58,015 nucleotides of DNA from Candidatus Harrisonbacteria bacterium (GTDB lineage Bacteria > Patescibacteriota > Minisyncoccia > UBA6257 > 1-14-0-10-44-23), in assembly GCA_023244975.1 (NCBI GenBank), contig JAHFLG010000012.1, positions 1 to 58,015 of the forward strand, in the 5' to 3' direction. The notes beneath the pieces were generated by a model. The model did no database searches and was not told where the DNA came from. It saw only the letters and a program-made list of their open reading frames with translations. The position numbers and the translations under genes were made by a program. Shown here piece by piece: positions 8,960 to 58,015 of the stretch; position 1 is the first letter of the stretch; each line of letters begins with the position of its first letter.

Positions 8960-10801
8960 ATGAAATTGAAACGTAGCACTGTTGGCGTTATCCTCATTAT
9001 TTTCATTATTGTATCGGCGATTATTGTTGCCAGCGAGATTCATTTTAGTGGCCGGTTTTATCCGCATAGTATCATTGGCGGAGAAGATGTCAGCGGTAAA
9101 ACATTTGATGAAGTATTTAAGAAACTTGATATGGCTGCAACGCGTATCGAGCATGAAGGGTTTGTAGTGAGGATTGCTTCGAGCACTATTAAGATTCCTT
9201 CATTTAGTCAGGGTCTTACTCCCGATACGGTCGTGGAATATTTTAGTATAGGCGATTGGAAAGGAGTATTGCAGAAAGCATATGACCTTGGCCGACAGGG
9301 AAATATTTTAAGGCGCATGAGCGAGCGCTTGGGTCTATTGTTTTCACCTATGGAAGTAACATTGCCCTATACCCTTCAGGAGAGTGCGCTTAATTCATTG
9401 CTCACTCGTGAAATTGGTGCGGTTGTAGCACGCAGACAGGAGGCGTACATTAAGGCGGTCGGCGCTACGATTGAAATTGTGCCTGAAGTTAACGGCCAAA
9501 GTATTAATCAAGAGGCCATCATCAGTCAGCTGCGTAGTAATTTGGAGACACTCGACACCTCTCCTTCATTCAAGATTTTCGCGACAACTGACCGTGCAGT
9601 TATTACAGCTAAAAAGCTGGAGCTTATAGTAGATTTTGCGCGATCACTCGCAAGCCGTAGCTACGCGATTTTGAAATTTGACGGTTTTTCCTCGTATGTA
9701 TCGGGTCCGATGCTTGCGAGCTGGCTCACATTGAACGATAAGGAGGGTGTATCGCTGACTCTCAATCAGAAAAAGCTTGAAGAGTATGTGCGAGCCAAGG
9801 TTGATCCGTATGTGGATAGTGCCCCACAAAACAGCCGATTTGAAATGCAGGGAGATAGCTTGGTTGAAATTGTCGCCGGTACATCTGGTCAAACGGTTGA
9901 TCTTAGTTCTCTCAATCAGCAGCTGGTTGGGGCGCTCCTTAAGATGTATCTTACGAGTGCTTTTGGCGGTAAAAGTTTTGATGCAATAAACCCTATTATT
10001 CTCACAGTCAATTTAATACCAGAGGATCCAAAAATAACCGAAAAGACGATTGCCGAGTATGGCATTAAAGATCTCGTTGGTACGGTGACAACAAATTTCA
10101 AGGGTAGTACCGCAGATCGGGCCCACAACATCAAAGCTGGCCTTGATCACATCAACGGCTTGCTTATTGCTCCGGGACAGGAGTTTTCAACGGTACGAGC
10201 CATTGGTGAGGTGACCGAAGAAGAGGGTTATGTGAAGGAGTATGTTATCAAGGGTAACGAGAGCATCAAAGAACTCGGCGGCGGCCTTTGTCAGATTTCG
10301 ACAACCTTATTTCGTCTGGCTCTTAATGCCGGCCTGCCGATCACGGAGCGGGTCAATCACAAGTATGTTGTCGGATATTACGGTCCGGGCCTGGACGCGA
10401 CCATCTACGGTCCGCATCCGGATCTGAAATTTGTAAACGACACCAAGGGCTATCTGCTCCTTCAGGGTAGGATAGAAGGAGGGAATTCATTAGTGCTTGA
10501 GTTCTATGGTCAAAAAGACGATCGTAAGGCCGAGGTGACCGTGCCGGTCATTACCAATCGTATTCCGCCGCCGGACGCGAAGTTTATTCCAACGCTTGAT
10601 CTTCGTTTGGGTGTTCAAAAATGCACTGAGCACGCGCGATACGGGCAGACGACTGATGCGACCTCAACCGTCACGTATGCTGATGGGCGACAGCGCGTTC
10701 AGCAGTTTCATAGTGTCTACACTCCTTGGGCGCAAGTCTGTTTGGTTGGAGTCTCACTCACGGCGCCTCTGACTCAGTCTTCAGACGAGGGGGTGCACTG
10801 A
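8960..10801 (+). CDS. VanW-family protein, membrane-anchored
   Basis: C-terminal VanW core (GGGLCQISTTLFRLALNAGLPITERVNH...GLDATIY) and an N-terminal TM helix. Start chosen at MKLKRS, 8 nt after tRNA-Gly. Confidence 0.75.
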   Translation: MKLKRSTVGVILIIFIIVSAIIVASEIHFSGRFYPHSIIGGEDVSGKTFDEVFKKLDMAATRIEHEGFVVRIASSTIKIPSFSQGLTPDTVVEYFSIGDWKGVLQKAYDLGRQGNILRRMSERLGLLFSPMEVTLPYTLQESALNSLLTREIGAVVARRQEAYIKAVGATIEIVPEVNGQSINQEAIISQLRSNLETLDTSPSFKIFATTDRAVITAKKLELIVDFARSLASRSYAILKFDGFSSYVSGPMLASWLTLNDKEGVSLTLNQKKLEEYVRAKVDPYVDSAPQNSRFEMQGDSLVEIVAGTSGQTVDLSSLNQQLVGALLKMYLTSAFGGKSFDAINPIILTVNLIPEDPKITEKTIAEYGIKDLVGTVTTNFKGSTADRAHNIKAGLDHINGLLIAPGQEFSTVRAIGEVTEEEGYVKEYVIKGNESIKELGGGLCQISTTLFRLALNAGLPITERVNHKYVVGYYGPGLDATIYGPHPDLKFVNDTKGYLLLQGRIEGGNSLVLEFYGQKDDRKAEVTVPVITNRIPPPDAKFIPTLDLRLGVQKCTEHARYGQTTDATSTVTYADGRQRVQQFHSVYTPWAQVCLVGVSLTAPLTQSSDEGVH

Positions 10802-10918
10802 GCAGGCCAAGGCTGCAATCCCTGCGGCCACCAGAATGGTTCGTCGGCTTCCGAACCTTCTTTCCGCTCGCGCCGCCGCGCTGCGCGATATGTCCTCGGG
10901 ACAGCAGCCTTGGCCTGC
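10802..10918. repeat. structured GC-rich repeat, family A, copy 1
   Basis: 117 nt. 15-bp closing stem GCAGGCCAAGGCTGC/GCAGCCTTGGCCTGC. The core is shared with 39907-40024 (inverted) and 42339-42454. Confidence 0.8.
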
Positions 10919-10957
10919 TTGCGTTGGATGCTGGGTTATGGTTAGATTCTTTTTAGT

Positions 10958-11030
10958 GCCACCTTAGCTCAGCTGGTAGAGCAATACTTTCGTAAAGTAG
11001 AGGTCCCGAGTTCGACTCTCGGAGGTGGCT
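10958..11030 (+). tRNA. tRNA-Thr (anticodon CGU)
   Basis: Hand-folded cloverleaf: acceptor GCCACCT/AGGTGGC, D-arm GCTC-AGCTGGTA-GAGC, anticodon loop TTCGTAA, T-arm CCGAG-TTCGACT-CTCGG. Confidence 0.85.
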
Positions 11031-11041
11031 CAAAAATATCT

Positions 11042-11749
11042 ATGAACTCTCAATACGACACATCCAATGTTCATCTGACTGTCTACCCGGGCGTGGGAGG
11101 GGACGATGCCAAGGACTGGGCAGATATGCTGATTCAAATGTATGCCAAGTATGCCGTTAGCCGTGGCTGGAAGGTGGCGCAGATTGATGATCGGTCGCTC
11201 GAAATTAAGGGCGAGACCGTTTATGGAACGCTTAAAAAAGAAAGCGGGGTGCACCGACTCGTGCGCATCTCACCGTATGACGCCAAAAAGTTGCGTCACA
11301 CCTCGTTTGCCCTGGTTGAGGTTGTGCCTATTTTAGCTGAACTGGCGAGAAAAATGGTCATCCCGCCACAAGACCTCGATGTTCAGACTGCGCGCGCCGG
11401 AGGTCCGGGCGGGCAAAATGTGAACAAGCGCGAGACTGCCGTGCGCGTGGTCCATATTCCGACCGGCATTGCCACGACCTGTCGCGAAGAGCGAGGTCAG
11501 CTGCAAAATAAAGAAAAAGCTATCGCGCTTTTAAAATCAAAACTTCTGCACTTGCAGGAAGTGTATCAAAAACAGACGCTCGCCGACCTGCGCGTGCACG
11601 CCAAGCCGGAGTGGGGAAGCCAGATTCGGTCGTACGTCTTGCACCCGTATAAAATGGTTAAAGACCACCGTACCAAGGCCGAAAGCAGTCAGCCGGACAA
11701 GGTCTTAGCGGGTGATCTTGAGAAGTTTATCAATGCCGAAAACGCATAG
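11042..11749 (+). CDS. prfB: peptide chain release factor 2 lacking N-terminal domain 1
   Basis: GGQ motif (GPGGQNVNK), RHTSFA and [13 protein letters not shown], all RF2-like. Only 235 aa. SPY replaces the SPF tripeptide. Confidence 0.8.
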
Positions 11750-11760
11750 TTTGGCATTGA

Positions 11761-11802
11761 CCCCGTGAGATACAGCAGCTATCTCACTGGGGTTGTTTTG
11801 TG
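11761..11802 (+). terminator. intrinsic terminator after prfB
   Basis: Hairpin CCCCGTGAGAT...ATCTCACTGGGG followed by TTGTTTTGTGG. Confidence 0.55.
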
Positions 11803-11873
11803 GTAAAATAAATAGAACCCCGAAGAGATAGGCGAGTACGCCATCTCATGGGGTGAAATTTATTCTAAATTTC

Positions 11874-13644: not shown

Positions 13645-15114
13645 TTAGGAATTAGTATAACCAGTTTCGGGTGGTAGTGTAGTCTTTGCTCCACGATTTT
13701 TCCAGTAGAGATATCCACCTAGTGACGCTATCCAGAGCAGTGACACCAAGATAATTTTATTAACAATCGAACCGGCATTACTCGTTAAGGTGAAATTTTG
13801 TGCAGGCGCGACTTTCATAAAGGTTCCGCTGGCATTTGCATATACAATAGTGTGATGTTCGCCAGAGGTGAGTCCGGTCAATGTTCTGGTATGCTGTCCG
13901 GCTGGAACTACGACCTGCTTTTCTAAATTGTAATCATAGCCAAAAACATCGATTCGATAACCATTACTTGGCTCAGTGGCTTTTGTTGGCCACTCGACAT
14001 TAACACTTCCATTGTTTGTACCTGGAGTCACTGATACATTCTGTTGTTGGGCTTGCGATCCTTGTTGACCCTGTTGATTCGATGAGGATTGATTTTGTTG
14101 ATTAATCGATGCCTGATTAACGGTTTGCTGAGCCTGGTTTTGCTGAGCCTGCTCTTGCTGGATTTTTTGAATAGTAATTTGTTCAGCAAGTTGAGGATTT
14201 TGATTTGGCTGGGCTTGTACCTGAACAGCCGACGCTGTTTTAAAACCGATGGTATATGTCGTGAGAGTGAGCTCGCTGCCAGTTGAACTGAACACGTCGG
14301 CAAAGTAATTGACCGACGGATGCAGTCCTTGAACCACGACTGCATGTTCAAGCTCAAAGGTTGCGTCATAGCCGGTTGCTGTTACATAAAGAGGATTGAG
14401 CTGAGTGCGGGTGGAGACGCGCGAGTCGCTTGCGATATTCGTCGTCCAGGCAAAAAGCACGGCAGTATCGCTTATGGCAACAATGCGAGCATTGCTGATT
14501 GAAATGCTTTCAGGGGCGGCCTGCCGGATCTCTTCTTCTGATGGGGGAGGAGCTGACGAGTTATTATTAACAACGCGTGGTTCGTAGAGGGCGAATTTGA
14601 AGGTAAAGGGTTGTAAATCGCCTCCTATGCGCGCCGCGCCGTTTTCATATGGAGACACATAGTCTCGATTATGTTCGAGAAAGGCAAAACGGTCGCCGTA
14701 GTACAATCCGAAGCCAAGGAGGGTTGATTCAATCTCAATAGAATAGGTGACTGCAGAGCTCAACGTGACTGGAGTTGCCCAGTCGATATGAAATCTATTG
14801 CCTCCAGGTATGGCGGGAAGTTCAGGCAGCATTTTTGATTTGCTTGCGATGATCGTTCCATCGGGATCGGCAAGAGTGACTATGACTTGGCCGCTGTCGC
14901 CGGTATTATCAGCCCAGAGGTCAAAACCGGTCATGCTAAAGTTACTGCTCGGTTGGAAGAGGAGATAGGGGGAGGGTCCGGTTGAGACTACATAGCGCTT
15001 CGACTGCCATGGATCGGGCGCAAACTCAAAGAATTTCGTTCCATGGGCAAAAGCCAGATTAGAAACTAGGAAAAAGAAGATAGAAGCTAGAATAAGAGCG
15101 AAGCGCACTTTCAT
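13645..15114 (-). CDS. secreted, C-terminally anchored surface protein with FN3-like modules and a Q-rich linker
   Basis: Signal peptide MKVRFALILASIFFFLVSNLAFA, two beta-rich FN3-like segments, a Q/N-rich linker and a C-terminal TM helix. Confidence 0.6.
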   Translation of the reverse strand: MKVRFALILASIFFFLVSNLAFAHGTKFFEFAPDPWQSKRYVVSTGPSPYLLFQPSSNFSMTGFDLWADNTGDSGQVIVTLADPDGTIIASKSKMLPELPAIPGGNRFHIDWATPVTLSSAVTYSIEIESTLLGFGLYYGDRFAFLEHNRDYVSPYENGAARIGGDLQPFTFKFALYEPRVVNNNSSAPPPSEEEIRQAAPESISISNARIVAISDTAVLFAWTTNIASDSRVSTRTQLNPLYVTATGYDATFELEHAVVVQGLHPSVNYFADVFSSTGSELTLTTYTIGFKTASAVQVQAQPNQNPQLAEQITIQKIQQEQAQQNQAQQTVNQASINQQNQSSSNQQGQQGSQAQQQNVSVTPGTNNGSVNVEWPTKATEPSNGYRIDVFGYDYNLEKQVVVPAGQHTRTLTGLTSGEHHTIVYANASGTFMKVAPAQNFTLTSNAGSIVNKIILVSLLWIASLGGYLYWKNRGAKTTLPPETGYTNS

Positions 15115-19009: not shown

Positions 19010-19020
19010 ATTTCAGAGCC

Positions 19021-19049
19021 TTGAAATAGAGCCAGATTTACGCTATACT
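19021..19049 (+). promoter_or_regulatory. sigma70-like promoter for purL
   Basis: TTGAAA-17 nt-TATACT. The -10 ends 13 nt before the purL ATG, implying a very short SD-less leader. Confidence 0.5.
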
Positions 19050-19062
19050 ACGTTTCTACCAT

Positions 19063-22712: not shown

Positions 22713-24125
22713 ATGATGGATGAGCTGAATGAAAAATGTGCTATCTTTGGTATTTTCGGTAAAGGCCTGGATGTCAGCCGTTTAAGTTTTTACGGATTGT
22801 TTGCGCTCCAGCACCGCGGTCAGGAAAGTTCGGGTATTTCCGTAAGCGATGGCTGGAAGATTGAGGCGCACAAGCACATGGGACTGGTAACCCAGGCCTA
22901 TGGCGAAGACGATATTAAACGGCTTAAGGGTCATATCGCCATCGGCCACAACCGCTATTCAACCTCGGCTGGTACCGGACTGCTGCACGCTCAGCCGGTA
23001 CTTTCCCGCGACGGCAGTATGGCTCTAGCGCACAACGGCAATTTGCCGTCGGTTGCGGCGCTGGAAGCATTTTTGAATGAAAAAGGTATCCCGACTAAGG
23101 ATCGTACCGACAGCGAAATGATGGCCGACGCGATCGGCTATTACATGGAGAAGGGGAGAAATGTCACTGACGCGATCACCCGAGCCTTTCCGTTATTTAC
23201 GGGGGCTTTTTCAGTTGTCGTGATGACCAAGGATACCCTGGTTGCCTTCCGTGACCACTGCGGCATTCGGCCGCTGGTGATGGGCAAGTTAAATGGTGGG
23301 TATGTATTTGCTTCTGAGACCTGTGCCTTTGCCACTATTGGCGCCGAGTTTATCCGCGAGGTGGCTCCGGGCGAGATGGTGTCGGTCATGGAGCGGGGAG
23401 TGAAGTCATTTAAACTTGCCGAACCAAATCAAAAGTTGGATATCTTTGAGTTTGTCTATTTTGCCCGACCGGACTCGGAGCTACTTGGCCAGTCGGTCTA
23501 TCAAGTCCGCCGACGCTGTGGCGAGATTCTTGCCAAAGAAAATCCCCTTAAGGTTGATATGATCGTGCCCGTGCCGGAAACGGCTATTCCGGTCGCCGTT
23601 GGTTATGCCGCAGCAACCGGAATCCCATTTGAAATGGCGATTGTTAAGAATCGCTACATCCATCGCACCTTTATCGAACCCGATCCACACTCGCGTGACT
23701 TGGGCGTGAAATTAAAACTGATTCCGCTACCGAACGTATTAAAAGGAAAGAAAATCGCTCTTATTGATGACTCAATTGTCCGCGGCACCACTTCCGCTAA
23801 ACTGGTGAAGGCGCTTTTTGAGGCCGGAGCAAAGGAGGTTCATTTTATGGTGAGTTCACCACCGGTGCGCTTCCCGGATTTTTACGGTATTGATACTCCG
23901 CAGCAGGCCAAGCTTATTGCCGCTACAAAAACTATTGGAGAAATAGGGAAGTTCCTAGGCGCGACGAGTTTACACTACCTCAGCCTTGATGGCCTAATTA
24001 AGGCGACCGGTCTGCCGCGCGAACAACTGAGCCTTTCCTGCTTTAACGGGGAGTATCCGGTAGATATTTTGGATCGCAAAGCCGAGATTGAATACAACCA
24101 ACTCACTCGTCCCGCTAATTGTTAG
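22713..24125 (+). CDS. purF: amidophosphoribosyltransferase
   Basis: Ntn Cys after a short propeptide (KCAIFGIFG), HRGQESSGI, and a PRTase loop (IALIDDSIVRGTTS). Confidence 0.9.
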   Translation: MMDELNEKCAIFGIFGKGLDVSRLSFYGLFALQHRGQESSGISVSDGWKIEAHKHMGLVTQAYGEDDIKRLKGHIAIGHNRYSTSAGTGLLHAQPVLSRDGSMALAHNGNLPSVAALEAFLNEKGIPTKDRTDSEMMADAIGYYMEKGRNVTDAITRAFPLFTGAFSVVVMTKDTLVAFRDHCGIRPLVMGKLNGGYVFASETCAFATIGAEFIREVAPGEMVSVMERGVKSFKLAEPNQKLDIFEFVYFARPDSELLGQSVYQVRRRCGEILAKENPLKVDMIVPVPETAIPVAVGYAAATGIPFEMAIVKNRYIHRTFIEPDPHSRDLGVKLKLIPLPNVLKGKKIALIDDSIVRGTTSAKLVKALFEAGAKEVHFMVSSPPVRFPDFYGIDTPQQAKLIAATKTIGEIGKFLGATSLHYLSLDGLIKATGLPREQLSLSCFNGEYPVDILDRKAEIEYNQLTRPANC

Positions 24126-24126
24126 A

Positions 24127-24401
24127 GACCCCAGGCAAACACTTCTTTTATGCCGCGATATAGACTAATTTCATACAGCGCCAGGAACGATATCGCAAGC
24201 AGTAGCTTTAGACTACTGCGAGAATATCGTGACGTAGCGATGGAGGAAATTCGTCATATCCCTTCGGGTTCGAGCCAGGTTCGTGATCTGCTGCGTTACT
24301 CCTCGGAGCCTATGGTAAACCATATGGTCTCCTCGGAGGTGCCTTGCAGCTCAGCAAACCTGGCGACGAACGCGGTTATAAAGCAGTGTTTGCCTGGGGT
24401 C
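24127..24401. other. 275-nt highly structured element bounded by a perfect 16-bp inverted repeat (candidate ncRNA or MITE)
   Basis: GACCCCAGGCAAACAC (24127-24142) pairs with GTGTTTGCCTGGGGTC (24386-24401). Further nested helices and internal hairpins, including a cUUCGg loop. Fills the purF-purN gap. Confidence 0.6.
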
Positions 24402-24403
24402 TT

Positions 24404-25111
24404 ATGAGAATAGCACTTTTAATTTCAGGCAGCGGTACTACTGCAACTGCGATCCTTAACGCAATCAAAACTGGCGAGCTCGCGGGAGTTGAACCGGCCT
24501 GCGTCATCGCAAGCCGACCCACTGCGCCCGGTATCGAACGTCTCGCGCAGGCCGGTTTTCCTAAAGACAAGATCTATGTTGCTTCGCCAAGGAGCGAAAC
24601 TTTTGGCGCAGAGATATTAAGAATTTGCAGCGACAATAAAGTTGATTTTATTGGCCAGTACGGCTGGTTGGCCATGACTCCGGAGAGTGTAATCGAGCAA
24701 TATAAAAGTATGATGGTGAACCAGCATGATGGGCCACTCGATCCCGGGCGACCGGATTTTGGTGGCGAGGGAATGTACGGTCTGCGCGTCTCGTGCGCGC
24801 GACTCCTCTTTGTGCGCAAGACTAATCATGATTTCTGGACCGAGGCGACCGCTCAGCGCGTGGCAGTACATTTTGATGAGGGTAGCGTCGTCAAAACCGC
24901 TCGCGTACCGATTTTAGAAAAGGATACGCCGGAAACCTTGGCAGCGCGGCTGCTGCCGGTTGAGCATCAGGTTGAGATAGATACCCTGTGCGACTTTGCA
25001 AACGGCACGGTCAAAGAAATCAAACGCGAAGTTCCGCTCGTTGCCCCTAATGAAATCGAGATTTTGAGGGAATGCAAAAAAGAGGCATTATTAACGTATC
25101 CGAGACGATGA
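24404..25111 (+). CDS. purN: divergent phosphoribosylglycinamide formyltransferase
   Basis: MRIALLISGSGTT N-terminus and an N-x-H...D formyltransferase core (VNQHDGPLDP, HFDEGSVV) with insertions. Position in the pur cluster. ATGA overlap with purD. Confidence 0.6.
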   Translation: MRIALLISGSGTTATAILNAIKTGELAGVEPACVIASRPTAPGIERLAQAGFPKDKIYVASPRSETFGAEILRICSDNKVDFIGQYGWLAMTPESVIEQYKSMMVNQHDGPLDPGRPDFGGEGMYGLRVSCARLLFVRKTNHDFWTEATAQRVAVHFDEGSVVKTARVPILEKDTPETLAARLLPVEHQVEIDTLCDFANGTVKEIKREVPLVAPNEIEILRECKKEALLTYPRR

Positions 25112-26395: not shown

Positions 26396-27331
26396 ATGAA
26401 ACTTAAGCCAATTTCTATAGTACTCATAGTATTGATAGTTTTTGGAGTTATTGGTGTCGTCATATATAAAGTCGAGCTAACGCTACAAACCAGAGTCGAG
26501 GCAGTATTTGCAGAAAAGCCAGCGTTGATCTGTCCGATTGGAACCATGGAGTTGAGCAGCTGCGGTTATTATTCAGTCTACCCCGATTTTTATTGGGATA
26601 AGCGTGCCGAGGAAACAAGTGACCAAAGATATTGTGGAGAGATCAAGGATGACTACCGGCGATCAGCTTGTTATGAGAGTATTGCTCAAGCCAAGCGCGA
26701 TGCCAATATTTGTCAGTATGCGACCGAAGACTTGGGTTGCGAAGAGCAGGTTGCATACAATATATATTGGGATTCTGGTAAAACCACTTTCGCTCCACCA
26801 ACAGTTCTTAATACTGTTTCAGTTGAAAAGGATCTCAGTCCTACTGTCCAAAAGATTATCGTTGCGCTCAGAGATAAGAATTTAGTCAGTCTTGAACCGT
26901 ATGTGGATTCGGAGAAAGGAGTTCTCTTCGGAGATCTGGGCGATTACGGCACAAAATTGATGCAGTCAGATCTAGCAACGGCTTTTACGAATTCCAAAAA
27001 GTATCCACTCCATTTATTTGTTAGTCATGATCCGGAACAAATTACATTTAAGCAATTTTTCGATCGCTATGTATGGTCTGAGTATACTGATACTGCTTCT
27101 GTGAAAGCAGTGTATTACATTGAGATGAAGGGACGCAAGAATATCGATGGGACAGTTTTTAAGGTAAATCCTAATGCATCCGCGCAGTTTATCTTGCCGA
27201 CAAAAAATAATCCGGAACCAATCAATAACACATTCATAAATCTTTATTTTGAGAAAAAGCAGGGCGCGTGGTATCTTATCGGTACGACTCATAGCGATGA
27301 TGATAGTAGGGGTCTAGGTGATGCTGATTAA
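26396..27331 (+). CDS. hypothetical membrane-anchored Cys-rich protein
   Basis: N-terminal TM helix and an extracytoplasmic domain with 8 Cys in the first ~100 residues. No recognisable family. Confidence 0.55.
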   Translation: MKLKPISIVLIVLIVFGVIGVVIYKVELTLQTRVEAVFAEKPALICPIGTMELSSCGYYSVYPDFYWDKRAEETSDQRYCGEIKDDYRRSACYESIAQAKRDANICQYATEDLGCEEQVAYNIYWDSGKTTFAPPTVLNTVSVEKDLSPTVQKIIVALRDKNLVSLEPYVDSEKGVLFGDLGDYGTKLMQSDLATAFTNSKKYPLHLFVSHDPEQITFKQFFDRYVWSEYTDTASVKAVYYIEMKGRKNIDGTVFKVNPNASAQFILPTKNNPEPINNTFINLYFEKKQGAWYLIGTTHSDDDSRGLGDAD

Positions 27332-27871: not shown

Positions 27872-27872
27872 T

Positions 27873-27954
27873 GGCCGAGCCGTAACCCCGGCCGTCACAG
27901 CGAGCATAGACATGGTGCCCTGCTCGCGAGACGGACGAGGGTGAGCGCGAGGCC
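27873..27954. repeat. structured GC-rich repeat, family B, copy 1
   Basis: The 5' arm (32 nt) and 3' arm (about 32 nt) are identical to those of 40988-41070, and the centre is divergent. Imperfect palindrome. Confidence 0.8.
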
Positions 27955-27966
27955 ATCACACGCATT

Positions 27967-30464: not shown

Positions 30465-31004
30465 TCAGTCGTCGAGGACGACGCCGTTGGGGATGTAGCA
30501 GGCGACAAAAATGTGCATGCTCCAGTCCTTGGGGAGGACGTGGAAGTCGAGTTTCTTGTTGCCCTGCAGGATTGCAGGGAAGCCATCGCGAGGGACCTCA
30601 GCGGCGACGGATCCCTTGGGCGGTTTCCGGAAGACCTGCGTTCCTACGAAGATGACACGCAGGCCCTGCTCCCGAATTCGTTCTCCCAGGAGTGGGCCGC
30701 CCTGTTGGCGAGGAATCTCGATGAAGTGGTCGTACATCCACTCTCCTTCCGCCCATCCCGGAAAGGTGACGCCGAGCTCACTTGCATCGCGCAAGCGCTC
30801 TTCCAACTCGTCGGCCGAGATGCTCTCCTCCTGGGCACGAACGACACGTGCCACTCGGATCTCGCCACCGCCGATTGGTGAATTGTGGCCGAGGCTGCTC
30901 ATCCAGGGCCGCCCTTCCTTCGCGTGCTTCAGCGTAGTCCGCCGCATTCTCGGAACCAGAATGCGGATCTCAGGGTCAACGCCGAAAAGTCCGGTTGAAC
31001 TCAT
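30465..31004 (-). CDS. orphan 179-aa protein of unknown function, compositionally foreign
   Basis: About 60 %GC by eye against high-40s in the flanks. AAGGAG SD 8 nt upstream of the ATG at 31004. Own terminator. No motif I recognise, and no TM helix or signal peptide. Confidence 0.7.
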   Translation of the reverse strand: MSSTGLFGVDPEIRILVPRMRRTTLKHAKEGRPWMSSLGHNSPIGGGEIRVARVVRAQEESISADELEERLRDASELGVTFPGWAEGEWMYDHFIEIPRQQGGPLLGERIREQGLRVIFVGTQVFRKPPKGSVAAEVPRDGFPAILQGNKKLDFHVLPKDWSMHIFVACYIPNGVVLDD

Positions 31005-31110
31005 TTCTATCGCTCCTTTCGTGAGCGTTGCCACCAAACTTACTGGGTCTGGGGCGAGTACATACATAAGCACAAATAGGCTCATTAGTCAATTATGAGA
31101 GGAGTTTATA

Positions 31111-36908: not shown

Positions 36909-36988
36909 AACATAATTAAGGGTAGTGCGTTATAAAGAGTATGCAACGAGGAAATGCTATAAATTTTGTTTTTAATATGGTCCCGCCG

Positions 36989-37018
36989 AGCTCGCTTGAA
37001 GGGCGAGCTTTGCTTTTC
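36989..37018 (+). terminator. intrinsic terminator after purB (first of two)
   Basis: AGCTCGC-TTGAAGG-GCGAGCT then TTGCTTTTC. Confidence 0.5.
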
Positions 37019-37050
37019 TGAATTTGACTTCACTCACTTAGAAAATCAAT

Positions 37051-37080
37051 GCCCGCTTTTCAAGCGGGCGTTTTTGTTTT
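37051..37080 (+). terminator. intrinsic terminator (second, canonical)
   Basis: GCCCGCTT-TTC-AAGCGGGC followed by GTTTTTGTTTT. Confidence 0.7.
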
Positions 37081-37110
37081 GGTAGCGACCTTCGGGTCAG
37101 AAAGGCGATC

Positions 37111-37290
37111 ATGGAAAAAACGATCAGTACGCGCGCCGAAGAAAAGCTCCGCAGGCTTGCGAAGCGATTTGGAGTGCCGTACGAGCAGTTGCTCGAGGAG
37201 CTACTCCGGGATTTCGAGGATCCTGAGGGAGCTCTCATCGAAGCCGAGGACGAGACCAGTTCGTTCTCACAAGACTGCCGGGGGATCTAG
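37111..37290 (+). CDS. possible 59-aa ribbon-helix-helix-like small protein
   Basis: TISTR strand followed by two helices (AEEKLRRLAKRFG, VPYEQLLEELLRDF) and an acidic tail. GC higher than the neighbours. Bracketed by terminators. Below the ORF-track cutoff. Confidence 0.35.
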   Translation: MEKTISTRAEEKLRRLAKRFGVPYEQLLEELLRDFEDPEGALIEAEDETSSFSQDCRGI

Positions 37291-37309
37291 TGTTTTCCGG
37301 CAACAGCAC

Positions 37310-37338
37310 GGGGCGGCTACGGTCGCCCCTTTCGATTT
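37310..37338 (+). terminator. hairpin terminator after the small ORF, overlapping the purH stop
   Basis: GGGGCG-GCTACGGT-CGCCCC then TTTCGATTT. Confidence 0.45.
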
Positions 37339-39041: not shown

Positions 39042-39908
39042 ATGAACGGCTTTGCGCTTATAGGTATTGCGGTGACACTCTGGTCGGTTGGTAGTGGCAT
39101 TATTGCTAAATTATTTACCGTGCCGGCGCTCATGTGGTACCCGGTGGCGGCGGCTATGGGAGCGGCGGTTGTCGTAGTCATTATTCTGATTAAAGAGTCG
39201 CCGCGATCTTTGTGGCCACAGAGCACGGCGGCACGGTGGCTGCTATTGGGAGTAGGTGTGACGGTTCTTATCAATAACGGATTATTTTTTACCGCACTTC
39301 AAATCACCTCGGTTCCGGTCGCTCAACTTACACATTATCTGGCACCTTTATTTTTGGCGGTGATTTTCGCACCCCTGATGCTTGGTGAAAAACCGACTAA
39401 GCGGGAGGTCATTCTGACACTTGTCGGCTTACTGGGACTTAGTATCGTTCTGTGGCCTGACTTACGCGACGCGCGGCTTAGTGTAGGAGCAATGATGGGC
39501 GCAATCTCAGCCGTATTCTTTGCGCTCGGTAACGTGTTTAATCGCAAACTTACCGCCTATGGGGTCAGCGGTCTGCCCGCGGCCGCGTATCAAAATTTTA
39601 TCCCCACCCTCGGCATGGCGCCGTTTATGTTGTGGCAACTAAACCAAGGTGTGCAGTTTACCTCCGGCGATATCTGGGGTGCGGTATATATGGGCGTAAT
39701 GACCATGGGTTTCGGATTTTCGCTGTTTTTATTCGGCCTCCAGCGTCTCAAAAAGGCTAACCATGCCGGCATCATGAGTTATGGCGAGCCAATAGGCGCG
39801 ATTATCCTGGCCGCAATATTTTTACACGAACCAATGACCGCCTACGTGATTGTCGGCGGTATCTTGATTATCGGTTCCGGCGTGGCTTTAGTTTTAGGAA
39901 AAGATTGA
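39042..39908 (+). CDS. EamA/DMT-family transporter
   Basis: About 10 TM helices in two repeated halves, typical of DMT transporters. Confidence 0.65.
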   Translation: MNGFALIGIAVTLWSVGSGIIAKLFTVPALMWYPVAAAMGAAVVVVIILIKESPRSLWPQSTAARWLLLGVGVTVLINNGLFFTALQITSVPVAQLTHYLAPLFLAVIFAPLMLGEKPTKREVILTLVGLLGLSIVLWPDLRDARLSVGAMMGAISAVFFALGNVFNRKLTAYGVSGLPAAAYQNFIPTLGMAPFMLWQLNQGVQFTSGDIWGAVYMGVMTMGFGFSLFLFGLQRLKKANHAGIMSYGEPIGAIILAAIFLHEPMTAYVIVGGILIIGSGVALVLGKD

Positions 39909-40024
39909 GAAACACGGCTGCTGTCCCGAGGGTACATCGCGCAGGCCGGCTGGGCCGAGCGGGAAGAAGGTTCGTCAGCCGACGAACCATTCTGGTACCC
40001 GCAGGGATTGCAGCCGTGTTTCTC
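39907..40024. repeat. structured GC-rich repeat, family A, copy 2 (inverted orientation)
   Basis: Closing stem GAGAAACACGGCTGC/GCAGCCGTGTTTCTC. Its reverse complement aligns with copy 1. Fills the convergent eamA/pyrB gap and overlaps both stop codons. Confidence 0.8.
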
Positions 40025-40941
40025 TAATTCAGGATTGAGTGAAGCAAGGCCATCCGGAGGTAGAGTCCGTTTCTGGCTTCGCGGAAATAGGCGGCGCGCG
40101 GGTCGCTGTCGATGTCGCGGTTGATTTCGTCGACGCGGGGGAGCGGGTGCATGATGATTGAGTTTTTCTTCATCATTGAAACTATGCTCTTGTCGAGGAT
40201 ATATGAACCTTTGAGTTTGAGGTATTCAGCCTCGGAAGCAAACCGTTCTTTTTGGATCCGGGTCATGTAGAGCACATCAACCTTGGCGGCTACATCTTTG
40301 AGGTTGTTGTATTCTTCGAACTTCATGCCGTTGCCGTAGAGCTGTTTGTGCCCCTCTGGAAATTTGAGCTGATCGGGCGAGACCAGATAGATTTTGTTGT
40401 TGTAGCGGCTGAGGAGGTCGATGAGCGAGCGGCTCGCGCGGCCATAGAGCAGGTCGCCGGCCACGGCAATGGTCAGGCCGTCAATTTTTCCAAGTTCCTT
40501 TTTTATGGTGTACATGTCGAGGAGCGCCTGAGTTGGGTGCTCGCCGGCGCCGTCGCCGGCGTTGATGACCGGCACCGTTGAGATCTCTGACGCTATCTTA
40601 GCCGAACCTTCGATGCTGTGGCGCATCACAATGGCATCAACGTAGCCGGAGATTATCCGGATTGTGTCTTGCAACGTTTCGCCTTTGACCGCAGAGGAGA
40701 ACTCGCCGGCGTTTTCAGTGGATACTACCTCGCCACCGAGTTTAAGCATCGCGGTTTCAAACGAAAACCGAGTACGAGTACTCGGTTCATAAAAGAGAGC
40801 GGCCATTATCTTGCCTTGAAGCGGAGCCTTTTTAACAATGCTTTTTTCCTGTTTCTCAATTTTAGCAGCAAGAGCAAACAGTTCATTCAAAACTTTCGGA
40901 TCATGAAACTGCTTAGTGGTCAGTACATTCTGAAGTTTCAT
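40024..40941 (-). CDS. pyrB: aspartate carbamoyltransferase catalytic chain
   Basis: STRTR, HPTQALLD and HPLPR motifs. Start at MKLQNVL; the longer ORF reads into repeat B2. Confidence 0.9.
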   Translation of the reverse strand: MKLQNVLTTKQFHDPKVLNELFALAAKIEKQEKSIVKKAPLQGKIMAALFYEPSTRTRFSFETAMLKLGGEVVSTENAGEFSSAVKGETLQDTIRIISGYVDAIVMRHSIEGSAKIASEISTVPVINAGDGAGEHPTQALLDMYTIKKELGKIDGLTIAVAGDLLYGRASRSLIDLLSRYNNKIYLVSPDQLKFPEGHKQLYGNGMKFEEYNNLKDVAAKVDVLYMTRIQKERFASEAEYLKLKGSYILDKSIVSMMKKNSIIMHPLPRVDEINRDIDSDPRAAYFREARNGLYLRMALLHSILN

Positions 40942-40951
40942 ATGTAACGAG

Positions 40952-40980
40952 ATTATACCAGCAGTTTGCAGCTTCAGCAA
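40952..40980 (-). promoter_or_regulatory. extended -10 promoter for pyrB (near-leaderless)
   Basis: On the minus strand: TTGCTG-17 nt-TATAAT with a TG extension (TGGTATAAT). The -10 ends 10 nt before the ATG. Confidence 0.55.
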
Positions 40981-40987
40981 TATTCTA

Positions 40988-41070
40988 GGCCGAGCCGTAA
41001 CCCCGGCCGTCACAGCGAGTATAGACATTGGTTTCCTACTCGCGAGACGGACGAGGGTGAGCGCGAGGCC
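40988..41070. repeat. structured GC-rich repeat, family B, copy 2
   Basis: Arms identical to 27873-27954. The central hairpin carries a compensatory C-G to T-A change. Confidence 0.8.
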
Positions 41071-41071
41071 C

Positions 41072-42328
41072 CTACGCCTGCGGATATACTCTGCCTAATG
41101 AAATTGTAAACTTGACGCTGCCGGGGAAGGTAGTGTCGGTAAATGGAGACCAGCCAACCTTGGTTTTGAGGTCAGCGTCACGGACAGTCCAGGATTTTTT
41201 CGGATCGATAATTGTGAGTGAGCCGGCGTATCCCTTTTCTATGTTTCCAAATTTTTTATTGCTGAACTGATTTATATAAGCGCCGGGATTGAAGCTACAG
41301 ACGCGGGCGATGTCGCGTGGGGTAAAGCCATGCTCACTCATGAGCCAGGTGGCGAATGAACCATAGGTGTCGAGGTGAGGCATACCATTAGCGCCTTTCA
41401 TTTTTTCTTCTTTGGTATTGGGCGAGTGATCGGTGGCCAGATAGTCGAGCGTGCCGTCTTTGAGACCTTCGATAACGGCAGCGCGATCTTCGGCGGAGCG
41501 AATCGGCGGATTTATCTGCAGCCACGGATGATTTTTTTCGTTAAGCATTGTGGCATCAAAGAACATATGGTGCGGCGCTGCCTCGGCAGTGACGTGGGCG
41601 CCATGGATCTTGGCTGCTCGAATCATTTCCACACCTTTTTTTGTGGAGATGTGGCAGAGCTTGCCAGTGAGATTGTATTTGGCAATGAGTTTGAGGGCGA
41701 AGTCGATGGCCGAAATTTCGGCTTCCGGCGGCCGGCGGAGTTCGTGCGTCGGCTGGTTTTTATTTTTTTCCAAAATTTCCGGGTCATCGCAGTGGAAGGT
41801 GACTGCCTGCCCGACATACTTCGCGATTGCCGCTTCAATATCTTCAAATGAATTAAAGAACAGATCGCCAACCGAGTGAGCCATAAAGATCTTGTATGGG
41901 ACTTTCCGGGAGAGCGGCTTGGTGCCCTTGCCAATGCCGGCATACAAGACGACCGGAATCAACGCATGGGCATCTTTCAATTTTTCTTTAGCGGCGTAGC
42001 TTGAGTCATCAACCGGAGGAACAGGATTGTTGGGCATCTCAACGAACTGGGTGACGCCGCCGTGGAGCGCCGCCTCTGAAGCGGTTTTAAAGTCTTCCTT
42101 ATACAAATCTTTGCCGCTTACGTCTTCGCGAGCATGGACATGCAGGTCGGTGAAGCTGGGGAAGATGAGGCAGCCCGAAGTATCAAGTAACAAGTCACGA
42201 GTGACACCTTTCTTACTTGTTACTTGCGACTTGTAACTTACGTCTTCGATTAGGCCGGTTTGTTCATTGATGACAATGGTGCCATCAAATTCTTCGTCAT
42301 GATTTACGATATGTCCGGATATGTTCAT
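41072..42328 (-). CDS. pyrC: dihydroorotase
   Basis: DLHVHARED metal-binding motif and an amidohydrolase fold. Start at MNISGH; the longer ORF reads through repeat A3. Confidence 0.8.
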   Translation of the reverse strand: MNISGHIVNHDEEFDGTIVINEQTGLIEDVSYKSQVTSKKGVTRDLLLDTSGCLIFPSFTDLHVHAREDVSGKDLYKEDFKTASEAALHGGVTQFVEMPNNPVPPVDDSSYAAKEKLKDAHALIPVVLYAGIGKGTKPLSRKVPYKIFMAHSVGDLFFNSFEDIEAAIAKYVGQAVTFHCDDPEILEKNKNQPTHELRRPPEAEISAIDFALKLIAKYNLTGKLCHISTKKGVEMIRAAKIHGAHVTAEAAPHHMFFDATMLNEKNHPWLQINPPIRSAEDRAAVIEGLKDGTLDYLATDHSPNTKEEKMKGANGMPHLDTYGSFATWLMSEHGFTPRDIARVCSFNPGAYINQFSNKKFGNIEKGYAGSLTIIDPKKSWTVRDADLKTKVGWSPFTDTTFPGSVKFTISLGRVYPQA

Positions 42329-42338
42329 GTTGTTTAGT

Positions 42339-42454
42339 GTAGCAGCAGTGCCAAATCCCTGCGGGCACCAGAATGGTTTTCTTACTGAAAACCTTCTTCT
42401 CGCTCGCGCCGCCGCGCTCCGCGATGTGCCCTCGGGACATGGCACTGCTGCTAC
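42339..42454. repeat. structured GC-rich repeat, family A, copy 3
   Basis: Closing stem GTAGCAGCAGTGCCA/TGGCACTGCTGCTAC. Lies between the pyrD stop and the pyrC start, 10 nt from the pyrC ATG. Confidence 0.8.
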
Positions 42455-43554
42455 GGCTCAGGCTTATATGTTCCTACGGCTTCTTGGATGGTTTTGTATC
42501 CATCGCGCTGTAGTAATTGTACCAGACCTTTGTTGATCTGTTTGACCAGCCCGGGGCCTTCGTAGATGAGTCCGGTGTAGAGTTCCACCAGGGTCGCTCC
42601 GGCTTTAATAAGGTCGTAGGCGTCTTCGGCGCTGCTGACGCCGCCGCAGCCGATGATGAATGGTTTATCTAGTTTTTTGTAGATATAACTAACCAGTTCA
42701 ACTGCCCAGGTTTTGATCGGCTCGCCACTCAGCCCGCCCTTACCCATACTTTCCAGTGTCGCGTCCGACGTCTTGAGTCCGGCGCGCGCGACCGAGGTGT
42801 TCATGACCACATAGCCGGAGATATGATGTTTTTTAGTGACGACTAGAATCTGATCCAGAACTTCTTCGGATACATCAGGGGAGAGCTTGATGAGCGTGGG
42901 TTTGCGCATAGTGAATTTTGTCTCAGCTGCGCGCAGAGCTCTCAGTAGGCTGTCGAGGGTCACTGGATCTTCAAAGGTTTTGCCGTCGGCGGTGTTTGGG
43001 CAGCTGATGTTGATGACCATAAACGATGAAAGTTGGTAGAGGGTTTGAAACGAAGCACAGAAATCGCTGATAGCATCAGCTCCCATAATCAGCGAATCAT
43101 TGGTTTTAACAATGTTAATGCCGAGCGGAATCTCGAGATGTTGACCATTGATACGATGAGCAATAACTTCTGCACCTTCATTGTTAAGTCCCATGCGGTT
43201 AATCAGGGCGCGGTCTTCGGGTAGCCGAAAGAGCCGCGGTTTTGGATTGCCCTCGGCAGGACGCGCGCTCACCGAACCAATTTCTGTGAAGCCAAAGCCA
43301 AGGGCTGGCAGGAACTCGCTGAGCTTGGCGTGTTTGTCGAAGCCGGCAGCGAGGCCGATGGGATTTTTAAAACTCATGCCGAGAGCCTCAACATGCAGCC
43401 GCGAGTCTTCAAAGTCGTAGAAGAATTTTATGAGTGATTTAAACGGGGAGCGAGCGAGCAGACTACCAAGACTTTGAAAGAAGGCGTGGGCGCGTTCCGG
43501 TTTTTGTGCAAAAAATATCGGTCGGACGAGTTTATACATGGGAGCGTACGGCAT
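42451..43554 (-). CDS. pyrD: dihydroorotate dehydrogenase, class 2 (quinone-type) like
   Basis: N-terminal extension typical of class 2, GFTEIGSV and GGLSG motifs. The start may instead be M6 (43539). Confidence 0.85.
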   Translation of the reverse strand: MPYAPMYKLVRPIFFAQKPERAHAFFQSLGSLLARSPFKSLIKFFYDFEDSRLHVEALGMSFKNPIGLAAGFDKHAKLSEFLPALGFGFTEIGSVSARPAEGNPKPRLFRLPEDRALINRMGLNNEGAEVIAHRINGQHLEIPLGINIVKTNDSLIMGADAISDFCASFQTLYQLSSFMVINISCPNTADGKTFEDPVTLDSLLRALRAAETKFTMRKPTLIKLSPDVSEEVLDQILVVTKKHHISGYVVMNTSVARAGLKTSDATLESMGKGGLSGEPIKTWAVELVSYIYKKLDKPFIIGCGGVSSAEDAYDLIKAGATLVELYTGLIYEGPGLVKQINKGLVQLLQRDGYKTIQEAVGTYKPEP

Positions 43555-44275
43555 TGAGCTCGTCGCGCATCTTCATGGCGGCGGCGCGCGGGTCTTTGTC
43601 GTAGATAATGCCGCGGGACGAGCTGATGATTGCGCCGCTTCCACCAGCAGTAAAGCAGGGTCGGACACTCTCGGCGGTACCACCTTGGGCGCCATAGCCG
43701 GGGACGAGCCACATGGAGTTTGGCATAGCTGCGCGTAGCGCCTTGGCTTCTTCGGGATAGGTCGCTCCGACAACGGCTCCAGAGCCCCACTGATTAATCA
43801 GCTGTGCCACCTTCATATATATATCGTCCTGAAGTTCTTTGGCAGATGGGTTGGAGGTACGGCAGAGGACAAAGACTCCTTTATCTTTATATGTAAGGAA
43901 GGGTGCCACGCCATCAGAGCCAAGATAGGGATTGACGGTGATGAAGTCCGCGCCAAGTTCTTCAAAATGTGCTTTCGCATAGGCCTGTGAAGTTGATCCA
44001 ATGTCGCCGCGTTTGCTGTCATCAATCGCGAGGACTCCTTTGCTGTGAATGTAGTCGATAGTCTGCTTAAACGCATCCCAGCCGGTAGCACCAAAGCGTT
44101 CATAGAAGGCCATCTGCGGTTTAAAGGCGACAACCAGGTCGTGCGTGGCATCAATTATGTGCTTGTTGAAACTTACAATCTCATCGGCAGTGGTTGCTTG
44201 CATCGGGTCGAGACCAACACACACCACGCTGTTTTTTGTCTTGATGTCCTGGGCGAGTTGTTCAAAGGCGTTCAT
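43532..44275 (-). CDS. pyrF: orotidine 5'-phosphate decarboxylase
   Basis: DxKxxD core (IDDSKRGDIGST). Sits in the pyr operon. Confidence 0.8.
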   Translation of the reverse strand: MNAFEQLAQDIKTKNSVVCVGLDPMQATTADEIVSFNKHIIDATHDLVVAFKPQMAFYERFGATGWDAFKQTIDYIHSKGVLAIDDSKRGDIGSTSQAYAKAHFEELGADFITVNPYLGSDGVAPFLTYKDKGVFVLCRTSNPSAKELQDDIYMKVAQLINQWGSGAVVGATYPEEAKALRAAMPNSMWLVPGYGAQGGTAESVRPCFTAGGSGAIISSSRGIIYDKDPRAAAMKMRDELNAVRSHV

Positions 44276-44961
44276 TATTTGAGTGAGAGCGGCTGGGTGC
44301 CGTAGGTTTTAAAGTAGGTTTCGGTTGCCGTAAGAATTTCAGGAGTCTGTGTGTGTTGGCTGCAGAGCTTTGGTAGCAGGGTGAGCAGGTTAGACATAGC
44401 AAAGTAGGGAACACCTTTTGATGTTAAGATGTCGGCTACATTTTTTTTGTCATCGGTGAGTTCGTTGCGGTTGGTCAGGGCAATCGCGGCGACAATATCG
44501 ACATTGAGAGCCTTTAAGGAGTCTATGGTTTTGATCAGCGAGCCACCGGTAGTGGTCACATCTTCAAGAACAACAACTCTGCCCTTAGGCATAGCCAAGA
44601 AAGATTTATCTTTAGGATCGCCATGATCTTTTTCTTTGCCGCGACCCATGGCAAGAGTGTGACTGCCCTTACTAAATGTCTTCTGGCTCTTGGCCCATTT
44701 GTACTGAGTTAGCACGCCAAGCTTGGTCGCGCCTTCGGGGACGCCGTAGAACGTATCAACTGGTAACTGATGACCGATAACAAATGACAGAACAAAGTCG
44801 GTCAGCTGGTCAATCAGATACACATCTTCCGCGGCCGTGCGCCAGTTTACATAACAGTTGCACATCCGGCCGGATTTAAATTTCACTGGTTGCTCATGGA
44901 AACCAATAATACCGTTTTCAAGAATGAAGTCATCAAATCTGTTCTGGTCAAAGGCTGACAT
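44275..44961 (-). CDS. pyrE: orotate phosphoribosyltransferase
   Basis: PRPP-binding loop VVVLEDVTTTGGS. Start chosen at MSAFDQN. Confidence 0.8.
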   Translation of the reverse strand: MSAFDQNRFDDFILENGIIGFHEQPVKFKSGRMCNCYVNWRTAAEDVYLIDQLTDFVLSFVIGHQLPVDTFYGVPEGATKLGVLTQYKWAKSQKTFSKGSHTLAMGRGKEKDHGDPKDKSFLAMPKGRVVVLEDVTTTGGSLIKTIDSLKALNVDIVAAIALTNRNELTDDKKNVADILTSKGVPYFAMSNLLTLLPKLCSQHTQTPEILTATETYFKTYGTQPLSLK

Positions 44962-44992
44962 CGCCTTAGAGAATATCAGAAAATTGGGCGGC

Positions 44993-45766
44993 TTACAACT
45001 CAAATTCGCAGACGAGCGGCAGATGGTCAGAGGCGTCTACATTCGGCTGTTTATGGCTCAGAGTTCTCACATCAGGACTGGTAAAGACAAAATCAACAAT
45101 CGCGTCTTTGTAGCCTGAGTCGGCGGGCTTACGCTTCATGTTAAAACTCGTGACCCGCTCGCCTCTAAAGAGGTCGGTCATAGCGTGGCCGATTAGATTC
45201 ATAGACTCAGTGCCTTCATTCACATTAAAGTCGCCGCACAGAATGGCCGGATGCTTGTCCTGAATTTTTTCCACAATCATTTTGCTCATCGCCAGCCTCC
45301 GTTCGGTATCCTTGCCATGCGTGCTCCAGATACCGTGGACATTGAAGAGGTGGAGTGCCGCCTCGCCAACATCGGCGGTTGCGTATTGCATGGCGCGAGG
45401 CACAGAGGTCTCATACTGGCCGTCGTCTATCCAGTGGTCATTGTAGGGCACGTCGAGATAATGTGTACTGACCTGCGTCAGTGGAAATTTTGAAAGAAAG
45501 GCCGTGCCCCAGAGTGGAGCAGGACTCAGAAATATTTTGCCCTCGCTCATACGGCGCATGGTTGGGGCATAGGCCTTGTAGGGAAGAGCGAGAACCTTTT
45601 GTAGGTTGGCGAGCGTATTAAATCGTGGCTGAGCATTGGGGTCGGCGCACTCATAAACTTCTTGCATAGCCAGTATGTCCGGCTGTTCTGATTTTAAAAA
45701 ACTCACTAGATTGTCCCAGAACAGGCCACCCATGAAGATATTGAGATGAATAAATTTGAGCTTCAT
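44993..45766 (-). CDS. endonuclease/exonuclease/phosphatase (EEP) family protein
   Basis: N-terminal QE motif (ILAMQEV), GDFN and a C-terminal SDHLP motif. Confidence 0.7.
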   Translation of the reverse strand: MKLKFIHLNIFMGGLFWDNLVSFLKSEQPDILAMQEVYECADPNAQPRFNTLANLQKVLALPYKAYAPTMRRMSEGKIFLSPAPLWGTAFLSKFPLTQVSTHYLDVPYNDHWIDDGQYETSVPRAMQYATADVGEAALHLFNVHGIWSTHGKDTERRLAMSKMIVEKIQDKHPAILCGDFNVNEGTESMNLIGHAMTDLFRGERVTSFNMKRKPADSGYKDAIVDFVFTSPDVRTLSHKQPNVDASDHLPLVCEFEL

Positions 45767-55860: not shown

Positions 55861-55927
55861 AAGGCCACAGTTTAGCGTCTTTTTATACCTTCTGGCAAAT
55901 TGCTAGTAGTTTTTTATTTTAGGTGTA

Positions 55928-55955
55928 TTGACATTGTATATACATTGTGTATACT
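55928..55955 (+). promoter_or_regulatory. promoter/operator of the dinJ-yafQ operon (leaderless)
   Basis: TTGACA-16 nt-TATACT, with the -10 ending 6 nt before the ATG. The spacer holds the 10-bp palindrome TGTATATACA and the repeats ACATTGTATATAC/ACATTGTGTATAC. Confidence 0.55.
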
Positions 55956-55961
55956 GATTGC

Positions 55962-56219
55962 ATGAATACTTTAAATGTCCGGATAGATAAAAAAATTAAG
56001 AAAAAGGCGACCGAGACTCTTGAGGCTATCGGTCTTGATATGTCTTCAGCTGTTAAGCTTTTTCTTAATCAGGTTATTATCGAACAAGGACTGCCATTTA
56101 CTCCCAGGCGCACCCCGAAAGAGATTCGAGCAGAATGGGACAAGGAAATTGAAGAGGCTCGGAAAGACGGTAAGACATATAAAACAGCATCTGCCATGTT
56201 GCGCGATATTATGCGTTAA
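55962..56219 (+). CDS. dinJ: RelB/DinJ-family antitoxin
   Basis: MNTLNVRIDKKIKKKATETLEAIGLDMSSAVKLFLNQV is the classic DinJ RHH N-terminus. Confidence 0.8.
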   Translation: MNTLNVRIDKKIKKKATETLEAIGLDMSSAVKLFLNQVIIEQGLPFTPRRTPKEIRAEWDKEIEEARKDGKTYKTASAMLRDIMR

Positions 56220-56227
56220 GCACCACG

Positions 56228-56920: not shown

Positions 56921-56945
56921 ATATTCCTATGTTATCATATCTAGC

Positions 56946-57245: not shown

Positions 57246-57341
57246 ATCTCTATCCTATTCCTTTACCCTAGTTTAGGAAAGTGATCAGTTCTGGTTGTGG
57301 TATACTAAAGTGTCGATTTCAAAAATTATTTTTTATTTTAT

Positions 57342-57653: not shown

Positions 57654-57656
57654 GAT

Positions 57657-58013: not shown

Positions 58014-58015
58014 AA

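Follow-up and report, generated by a model that had tools for sequence, protein, structure and literature searches.

The gap between purF and purN in the 58,015-nt stretch of Candidatus Harrisonbacteria DNA analysed here (hereafter the window) is wholly occupied by a palindromic element of about 277 bp (24125/24126-24402/24403, confirmed by a sequence check), a structured insertion that has no coding capacity and belongs to no known RNA family. The explanation that we favour, at about even confidence, is that it represents a lineage-specific, MITE-like or foldback insertion built of nested palindromes, i.e. a mobile element or the relic of one, and that it shares a transcript with the pur genes. 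In all likelihood the insert is either selfish or tolerated, and does not act as a regulatory RNA that senses purines. No new purine riboswitch is revealed by the analysis; the structure of the element is striking, its kind is broadly familiar and any role is putative. A preliminary description of this gap, made from the sequence alone, had named three candidates for it, namely a new RNA with a cis-regulatory or processing role, a stable non-coding RNA and a non-autonomous MITE, and its interpretation is partly supported by the analysis presented below.

The element lies in a long run of purine biosynthesis genes. The gene order in the window is purL-purQ-purF-element-purN-purD-...-purE-purC-purM, followed by guaB, purA, guaA, purB and purH, and the pur genes around the element are all on the + strand and separated by tiny gaps; the window additionally contains a pyrimidine operon. 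The gene upstream of the element, purF (22713..24125, + strand), codes for an amidophosphoribosyltransferase with the Pfam domains GATase_6/GATase_7/Pribosyltran and ends in the stop codon TAG at 24123-24125. The downstream gene, purN (24404..25111, + strand), is a GAR formyltransferase gene according to Pfam and begins with the ATG at 24404. Between them, the exact complement of the sequence GACCCCAGGCAAACAC (24127-24142) is found at 24386-24401. This terminal inverted repeat, reported in the preliminary description as 16 bp long, is present and is actually perfect over 17 bp (24126-24142 / 24386-24402), and it reaches 19 bp as RNA if the pairs G24125-U24403 and U24143-A24385 are counted. By our own arithmetic, the chance expectation of a perfect inverted repeat of 17 bp in ~280 nt is ~2e-6. 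Beyond the perfect repeat the complementarity continues inwards, with 27/32 positions (84%) being complementary between the two 32-nt terminal strands. These strands (24125..24156 and 24372..24403, both given on the + strand) are predicted to form a closing stem of 19 + 4 + 5 bp, i.e. 28 bp in a span of 32 nt; the energy of this duplex is -51.2 kcal/mol. The 5' strand contributes P1 (24125-24143, 19 bp), CUUU (24145-24148) and GCCGC (24152-24156), and the 3' strand includes all the 25 nt upstream of the purN AUG. The two inner helices, CUUU/AAAG and GCCGC/GCGGU, have pair probabilities of 0.73-1.0 in the ensemble, which backs the second long-range helix that had been proposed earlier (24145-24157 x 24371-24383).

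The closing stem leads into a predicted three-way junction from which two arms of exactly 104 nt each emerge, both of them imperfect palindromes. The left arm (24157..24260, + strand) contains 35 bp and has its tip at 24187-24230, whereas the right arm (24268..24371, + strand) contains 38 bp and is capped by two CTCCTCGGAG boxes (24299-24308 and 24329-24338) that form its tip. A CCUUCGG mini-hairpin (24261..24267, + strand) is placed between the arms at the junction itself. The helix list accordingly has a perfect outer stem and imperfect arms. Several of the smaller helices in the preliminary description can be recognized in this architecture, although not always in the role assigned to them. 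The 17-bp interrupted hairpin (24188-24229) and the roughly 60-nt hairpin (24290-24350) are both present, but instead of standing free they constitute the tips of the left and right arms respectively; likewise, the cUUCGg tetraloop hairpin is present at the three-way junction but comprises only 2-3 bp. The third long-range helix that it had drawn (24179-24185 x 24359-24365) is not tenable, having an ensemble probability of ~0 and costing 13.8 kcal/mol when forced, and its place is taken by a helix in the right arm in which 24274-24281 pairs with 24357-24364.

The predicted fold is exceptionally stable on either strand. The + strand has a minimum free energy of -139.5 kcal/mol (z = -10.7), a stability reached by 0/200 dinucleotide shuffles, and the - strand one of -138.5 kcal/mol (z = -12.0). 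The window has 14 intergenic gaps that measure 50 nt or more, and the purF-purN gap shows the most extreme fold of them all. About 71% of the bases of the element are paired in the predicted structure, the helices being nearly all Watson-Crick with very little unpaired conserved sequence. G-U pairs account for 3/103 pairs on the + strand and 4/106 on the - strand, so that neither strand is favoured. Strand symmetry of this kind, with few G-U pairs, is usually typical of a DNA palindrome or a young element and not of an RNA that has long been under selection.

A contig from the assembly of a different sample (L009) is 100% identical to the window over 2,561 nt including the element, and the same purF-purN gene spacing is seen in two further assemblies. 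These observations indicate that the element is real and not an assembly artefact, and the identity in the second sample suggests at the sequence level that it is fixed in the population. Homologues of PurN and PurF assign the contig to Patescibacteria (Parcubacteria/Paceibacterota-like), and beyond this population the nearest relatives recovered with these two proteins show only ~70-80% protein identity. Readable DNA of the purF-purN junction is available from three of their loci, in which PurF is 80% (L010), 78% (L003) and 77% (L002) identical to that of the window. In these the two genes are separated by 3, 5 and 10 nt respectively (junctions TAGTCTATG, TAGAACCTATG and TAAATTTTTTACTATG), as opposed to 278 nt here. 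Furthermore, no element-like sequence was detected in any of the DNA of relatives that was compared, which amounts to 39.6 kb with the three loci included. As the readable gaps of the relatives measure only 3-10 nt, the element is a lineage-specific insertion. The preliminary description had suggested conservation in homologous purF-purN spacers as a check on a novel RNA, and 3/3 of the readable relatives lack the element, which disfavours a conserved cis-regulator at the phylogenetic depth sampled; the strand symmetry and the lack of an Rfam family also speak against this part of its interpretation.

The organism closest by PurN (P0002, 73.5% identical, with the others at 64-69%) presents a different picture. 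On its contig (ENA ERZ27297570, 1,325 nt), purN is preceded by a 340-nt gap that separates it from a 73-aa gene fragment, and this gap may represent an insert at the site that matches that of the 277-bp element. If the two are homologous, the insert would be older and possibly selected, and the purF-purN element might then have been retained as a structured RNA bridge or RNase III site, possibly with a function. Synteny is lacking at the P0127 locus.

By definition, a MITE has terminal inverted repeats and target duplications but no transposase; such elements are often co-transcribed with neighbouring genes and can influence mRNA stability (PMC3184786). The element agrees with this definition in its terminal repeats, with their perfect 17 bp and their 27 complementary positions out of 32 overall, and in its small size of 277 bp without a transposase or coding capacity. 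To this extent the MITE option of the preliminary description, namely a non-coding insertion with terminal repeats, is borne out, but the element is present as a single copy in the 58-kb window, has no copy in the 39.6 kb of relatives' DNA and is not bounded by a clean target-site duplication. Its flanks read ...TGTTA-G-(AGACC...GGTCT)-TATGAG, in which a TA adjoins both ends with the left one offset by one base, and no longer direct repeat is found at the flanks in the window sequence. The empty sites of the three relatives were compared for a target-site duplication alongside these offset TA flanks. No transposase, integrase or reverse transcriptase was detected among the window proteins scanned, and neither these proteins nor the terminal-repeat scans revealed an autonomous IS that is related to the element and matches its terminal repeats.

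Searches of larger collections gave a similar result. The two-arm terminal-repeat pattern has 0 matches in 185,579 species genomes, and its sole match in the JGI metagenomes (L001) has only 11-12-nt seeds in common with the element and was dismissed as a chance match. The same applies to five single matches of the 18-mer terminal repeat in the species genomes, which come from unrelated phyla and agree only in the seed. The terminal repeat has 0 matches in the viral contigs scanned; the CTCCTCGGAG double-box pattern retrieves 37 loci from viral contigs, and these show no likeness beyond the pattern itself. A BLAST search against plasmids and phages returned no match to the element. Hence the many near-identical copies that the preliminary description expected of an ordinary MITE did not emerge, no related copy being found in the 58-kb window or in the terminal-repeat scans of the collections. 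These collection scans used the terminal repeat as their sole handle and may have missed relatives, given that the outer stems of the ABC repeats discussed below are specific to each copy. Judged by its sequence, then, the best fit for the element is that it is MITE-like, its membership as a MITE being unproven. In a full-text search of the literature, no account of MITEs in Patescibacteria came up.

The same window contains a family of smaller palindromic repeats, termed ABC, with three copies of 116-125 nt at 10800-10920 (+ strand), 39907-40024 (opposite orientation, with the core on the - strand) and 42339-42454 (+ strand). Their cores of 87-106 nt are 83-86% identical. The predicted fold of the family is Y-shaped, comprising an outer stem, a short stem that is conserved and a pair of hairpins; the outermost 9-11 bp are wholly different between the copies and yet perfectly complementary within each. 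Each copy begins at or inside a stop codon, and the orientation with respect to transcription is mixed. One of the copies takes up the space between pyrB and the convergent gene for an EamA-family transporter, and another is located inside the pyrD-pyrC operon junction. The family has no meaningful Rfam match, was not found in the fetched loci of the relatives, and its core pattern has 0 matches in viral contigs.

In several respects these repeats resemble the 277-bp element: both are Y-shaped, the outer stem being perfect and the inner hairpins imperfect, both abut or overlap a stop codon and leave no part of the gap free, and one ABC copy is likewise situated in an operon junction. They differ in that the ABC repeats are only 116-125 nt long and occur in three copies, and there is no demonstrable homology between the two. 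Membership of the element in the family was rejected, as both nhmmer --max and cmsearch with its filters off recover only the three ABC copies at E<=10. A weak resemblance to the ABC core at 24258-24284 (21/27 identical, a score reached by 2/300 shuffles) is only suggestive. Nevertheless, the presence of the ABC family in the same window suggests that this genome accumulates palindromic inserts of like design at like sites. It is conceivable, though doubtful, that the 277-bp element and the ABC repeats together constitute an undescribed class of Y-shaped palindromes that insert at stop codons in this lineage of Patescibacteria, each with its own copy-specific closing stem that would keep stop and start juxtaposed. 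Were such a class to exist, junctions that rely on termination-reinitiation would survive the insertion. Other unusually structured gaps in the window are found at 27872-27966, 11750-11852, 36909-37336 and 10802-10957 (z from -3 to -6), one of them being a gap-filling hairpin between purE and purC, in the same operon as the element.

Among described systems, the Correia elements (CREE or NEMIS, of Neisseria) and the ERIC elements of Enterobacteriaceae offer the closest comparison that we considered. Like the element, they are short non-coding sequences with terminal repeats in operon spacers, are expected to be co-transcribed and to form a long hairpin in the mRNA, and have a TA adjoining both ends (offset by one base on the left in the element). 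Elements of this sort can alter how an mRNA is processed or how stable it is (PMC3184786, PMC2649163). The element differs in being larger (277 bp versus ~100-160 bp) and in forming a three-way junction of three nested palindromes where theirs is one hairpin; it was seen as a single copy with no clean target-site duplication, and no partner transposase was found in the window. No sequence similarity to known elements emerged from the searches run. A second parallel is provided by rRNA precursor stems and the intervening sequences of rRNA genes, in which the flanks pair into a duplex that is processed by RNase III and thereby releases the insert. The flanks of the element similarly pair in a duplex of more than 20 bp whose cleavage is putative, but it sits in an mRNA between two protein genes. 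Finally, the buried purN start, with the opposite strand lying on the path of the upstream ribosome, recalls translational coupling by RNA unfolding as in phage f1 VII/IX, MS2 coat-lysis and rpmI-rplT (PMC12548453). In contrast to those cases, the helix strands predicted for the element are 240 nt apart and the helix would be supplied by an insert and not by coding sequence.

The position of the closing stem is of particular relevance to the translation of purN. Its first base, G24125, also serves as the final base of the stop codon of purF, and its last base, U24403, is one base before the purN AUG. The 25 nt upstream of this AUG are G/C-rich and lie entirely within the paired 3' strand, with an unpaired probability of ~0 for 24390-24402 and of 0.23 for 24403. 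Across 39 genes of the window the corresponding 25 nt are mostly A/U-rich, with little or no Shine-Dalgarno pairing, and the G/C-rich, fully paired leader of purN is atypical among them. As the start region is locked in the stem, unlike the A/U-rich leaders, independent initiation at purN should be very poor. The ATG at 24404 corresponds to the start that is conserved in the homologues (MRIALLISG...). An in-frame TTG at 24344, inside the element and preceded by GGAGGTG, was used instead by the gene callers in two other assemblies, resulting in a PurN longer by 20 residues.

Taken together with the two models of translational coupling, RNA unfolding and re-initiation (reviewed in PMC12548453), these features suggest the following scenario, in which we infer a mobile-element origin, co-transcription and a coupling or RNase III step. 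The element would have landed in a very short purF-purN junction as a non-autonomous mobile element or its relic. Having no promoter or terminator of its own, it would be transcribed within the pur operon mRNA, which would fold into the 28-bp closing stem and the two 104-nt hairpin arms at the three-way junction. The closing stem would thereby keep the purF stop and the purN start adjacent in space despite the 277 extra bases. Ribosomes terminating at purF might then melt the 5' strand of the stem, and purN would be coupled by unfolding or re-initiation. Alternatively or additionally, RNase III might cut the long duplex, for which the 28 bp would make a plausible substrate, and so enable purN translation. 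In either event the coupling implied by the 3-10-nt gaps of the relatives would be preserved. Given that the initiation region is predicted to be locked at -51 kcal/mol, purN translation most likely needs the ribosomes that terminate at purF or RNase III. When a ribosome was modelled on the purF stop, by a simple thermodynamic fold with its footprint held single-stranded, the freed 3' strand re-paired downstream and the purN start was not clearly exposed; because of this outcome the coupling step is offered here as a hypothesis.

Several other explanations of the element need to be weighed against a mobile insertion. One that deserves some credence, though it is on the whole unlikely, is that the lineage acquired a functional processing or insulator RNA internal to the operon, with the closing duplex serving as an RNase III site. 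A cut there would split the purLQF message from that of purN-D and make the purN start accessible, and its products would be stable ends capped by hairpins or a stable excised RNA of ~230 nt. The closing stem is long and stable enough for RNase III, the element is fixed and identical across assemblies, the P0002 organism may have an insert at the corresponding site, and a precedent exists in the Correia elements, which are bound and cleaved by RNase III (PMC2649163). On the other hand, the three relatives with junctions of 3-10 nt do without any such RNA, the strand symmetry gives no sign of selection at the RNA level, and no RNase III gene is seen in the 58-kb window. Less probable is a palindrome made locally, by template-switching during replication or by inverted duplication, and then tolerated. 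The single copy without a target duplication or relatives in the collections searched would agree with such an origin, as would the perfection of the outer stem next to imperfect arms. However, no likeness to the neighbouring purF or purN sequence was seen in any part of the element, whichever strand was compared, nor is one arm related to the other, for which reason a local duplication was rejected; moreover, it is difficult to see how three independent nested palindromes of unrelated sequence could arise from a junction of only 3-10 nt.

The remaining possibilities would make the element a gene or a regulator in its own right. The very stable fold of both strands might suggest a separate gene for a small non-coding RNA, on one strand or the other, between purF and purN, but we consider this quite improbable: no promoter-like or terminator-like site was found in 24126-24403 on either strand or beside the element, the closing stem is followed by UAUGAGAAUAG and lacks the U-tract of an intrinsic terminator, no Rfam family matches, and the three relatives show no conservation. 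The case for a metabolite-sensing riboswitch or another conserved cis-regulator, which rests on the location in the purine operon and the sequestered purN start region, is very improbable. A scan of the element with Rfam 15 gave nothing at the gathering score and nothing at E<=10, the purine, ZTP, PRPP and guanidine classes included, in keeping with the preliminary remark that none of these riboswitches fits. Nor is the structure itself of the expected kind, as it is nearly all Watson-Crick and strand-symmetric with little unpaired conserved sequence, is missing from the homologous junctions, and is placed in the middle of the operon and not in its leader, which at 19010-19062 is unstructured. 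Finally, an ORF of 85 aa overlaps the element (24150-24407), and its frame is open for 85 codons with a TGA that overlaps the purN ATG (ATGA). That it encodes a small protein is scarcely credible. Its codon-usage score is -0.07 as against 0.21 +/- 0.065 for the real genes of the window, i.e. ~4 sd below them; it contains no Pfam domain, a search of 5.8 billion proteins turned up neither a homologue nor a gene call for the ORF itself, and it is absent from the gene calls of the other assemblies. Its translation also served as bait for homologous elements that might have been annotated as genes, and none were found. By these sequence measures the ORF is evidently non-coding, as the preliminary description had held in denying it any coding character.

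Should the element indeed be a mobile insertion, it would follow that a compact, Shine-Dalgarno-poor genome has absorbed a 277-bp insert in a tightly coupled junction, with the closing helix of the insert restoring the adjacency of stop and start. Palindromic repeat elements in Patescibacteria would also have one of their early descriptions here, the literature search having found no previous account. The practical value is mainly in annotation, in that the purN start has been placed at the TTG at 24344 by some gene callers, and such inserts should not be taken for regulators in searches for riboswitches.

The window presents certain additional features. The region 17621-38929 carries a near-complete-looking set of genes for de novo purine synthesis (purL/Q/F/N/D/E/C/M, guaB, purA, guaA, purB and purH), and the region 40024-45003 contains pyrB, pyrC, pyrD and pyrF along with a gene for a phosphoribosyltransferase-domain protein that may be pyrE. 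Near-complete de novo synthesis of both purines and pyrimidines is unusual for Patescibacteria, with their reduced genomes. A 311-aa protein without a Pfam domain (26396-27331) is encoded in the pur operon between purD and purE, and two more such proteins, of 195 aa (30511-31098) and 489 aa (13645-15114), are encoded elsewhere in the window. The class-I release-factor gene at 11042-11749 codes for only 235 aa, with a match confined to positions 95-194 of the PCRF domain together with the RF-1 domain, and the N-terminal domain is missing; a tRNA at 10958-11030, 12 nt upstream of this gene, leaves no room for the missing part. At the other end of the window, the last 2.1 kb (55860-58015) hold only small ORFs, and a RelB / ParE-YafQ toxin-antitoxin pair is indicated there by Pfam hits precomputed for a matching ENA contig. 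This contig ends nearly where the window ends, which may indicate the presence of a repeat beyond that point.
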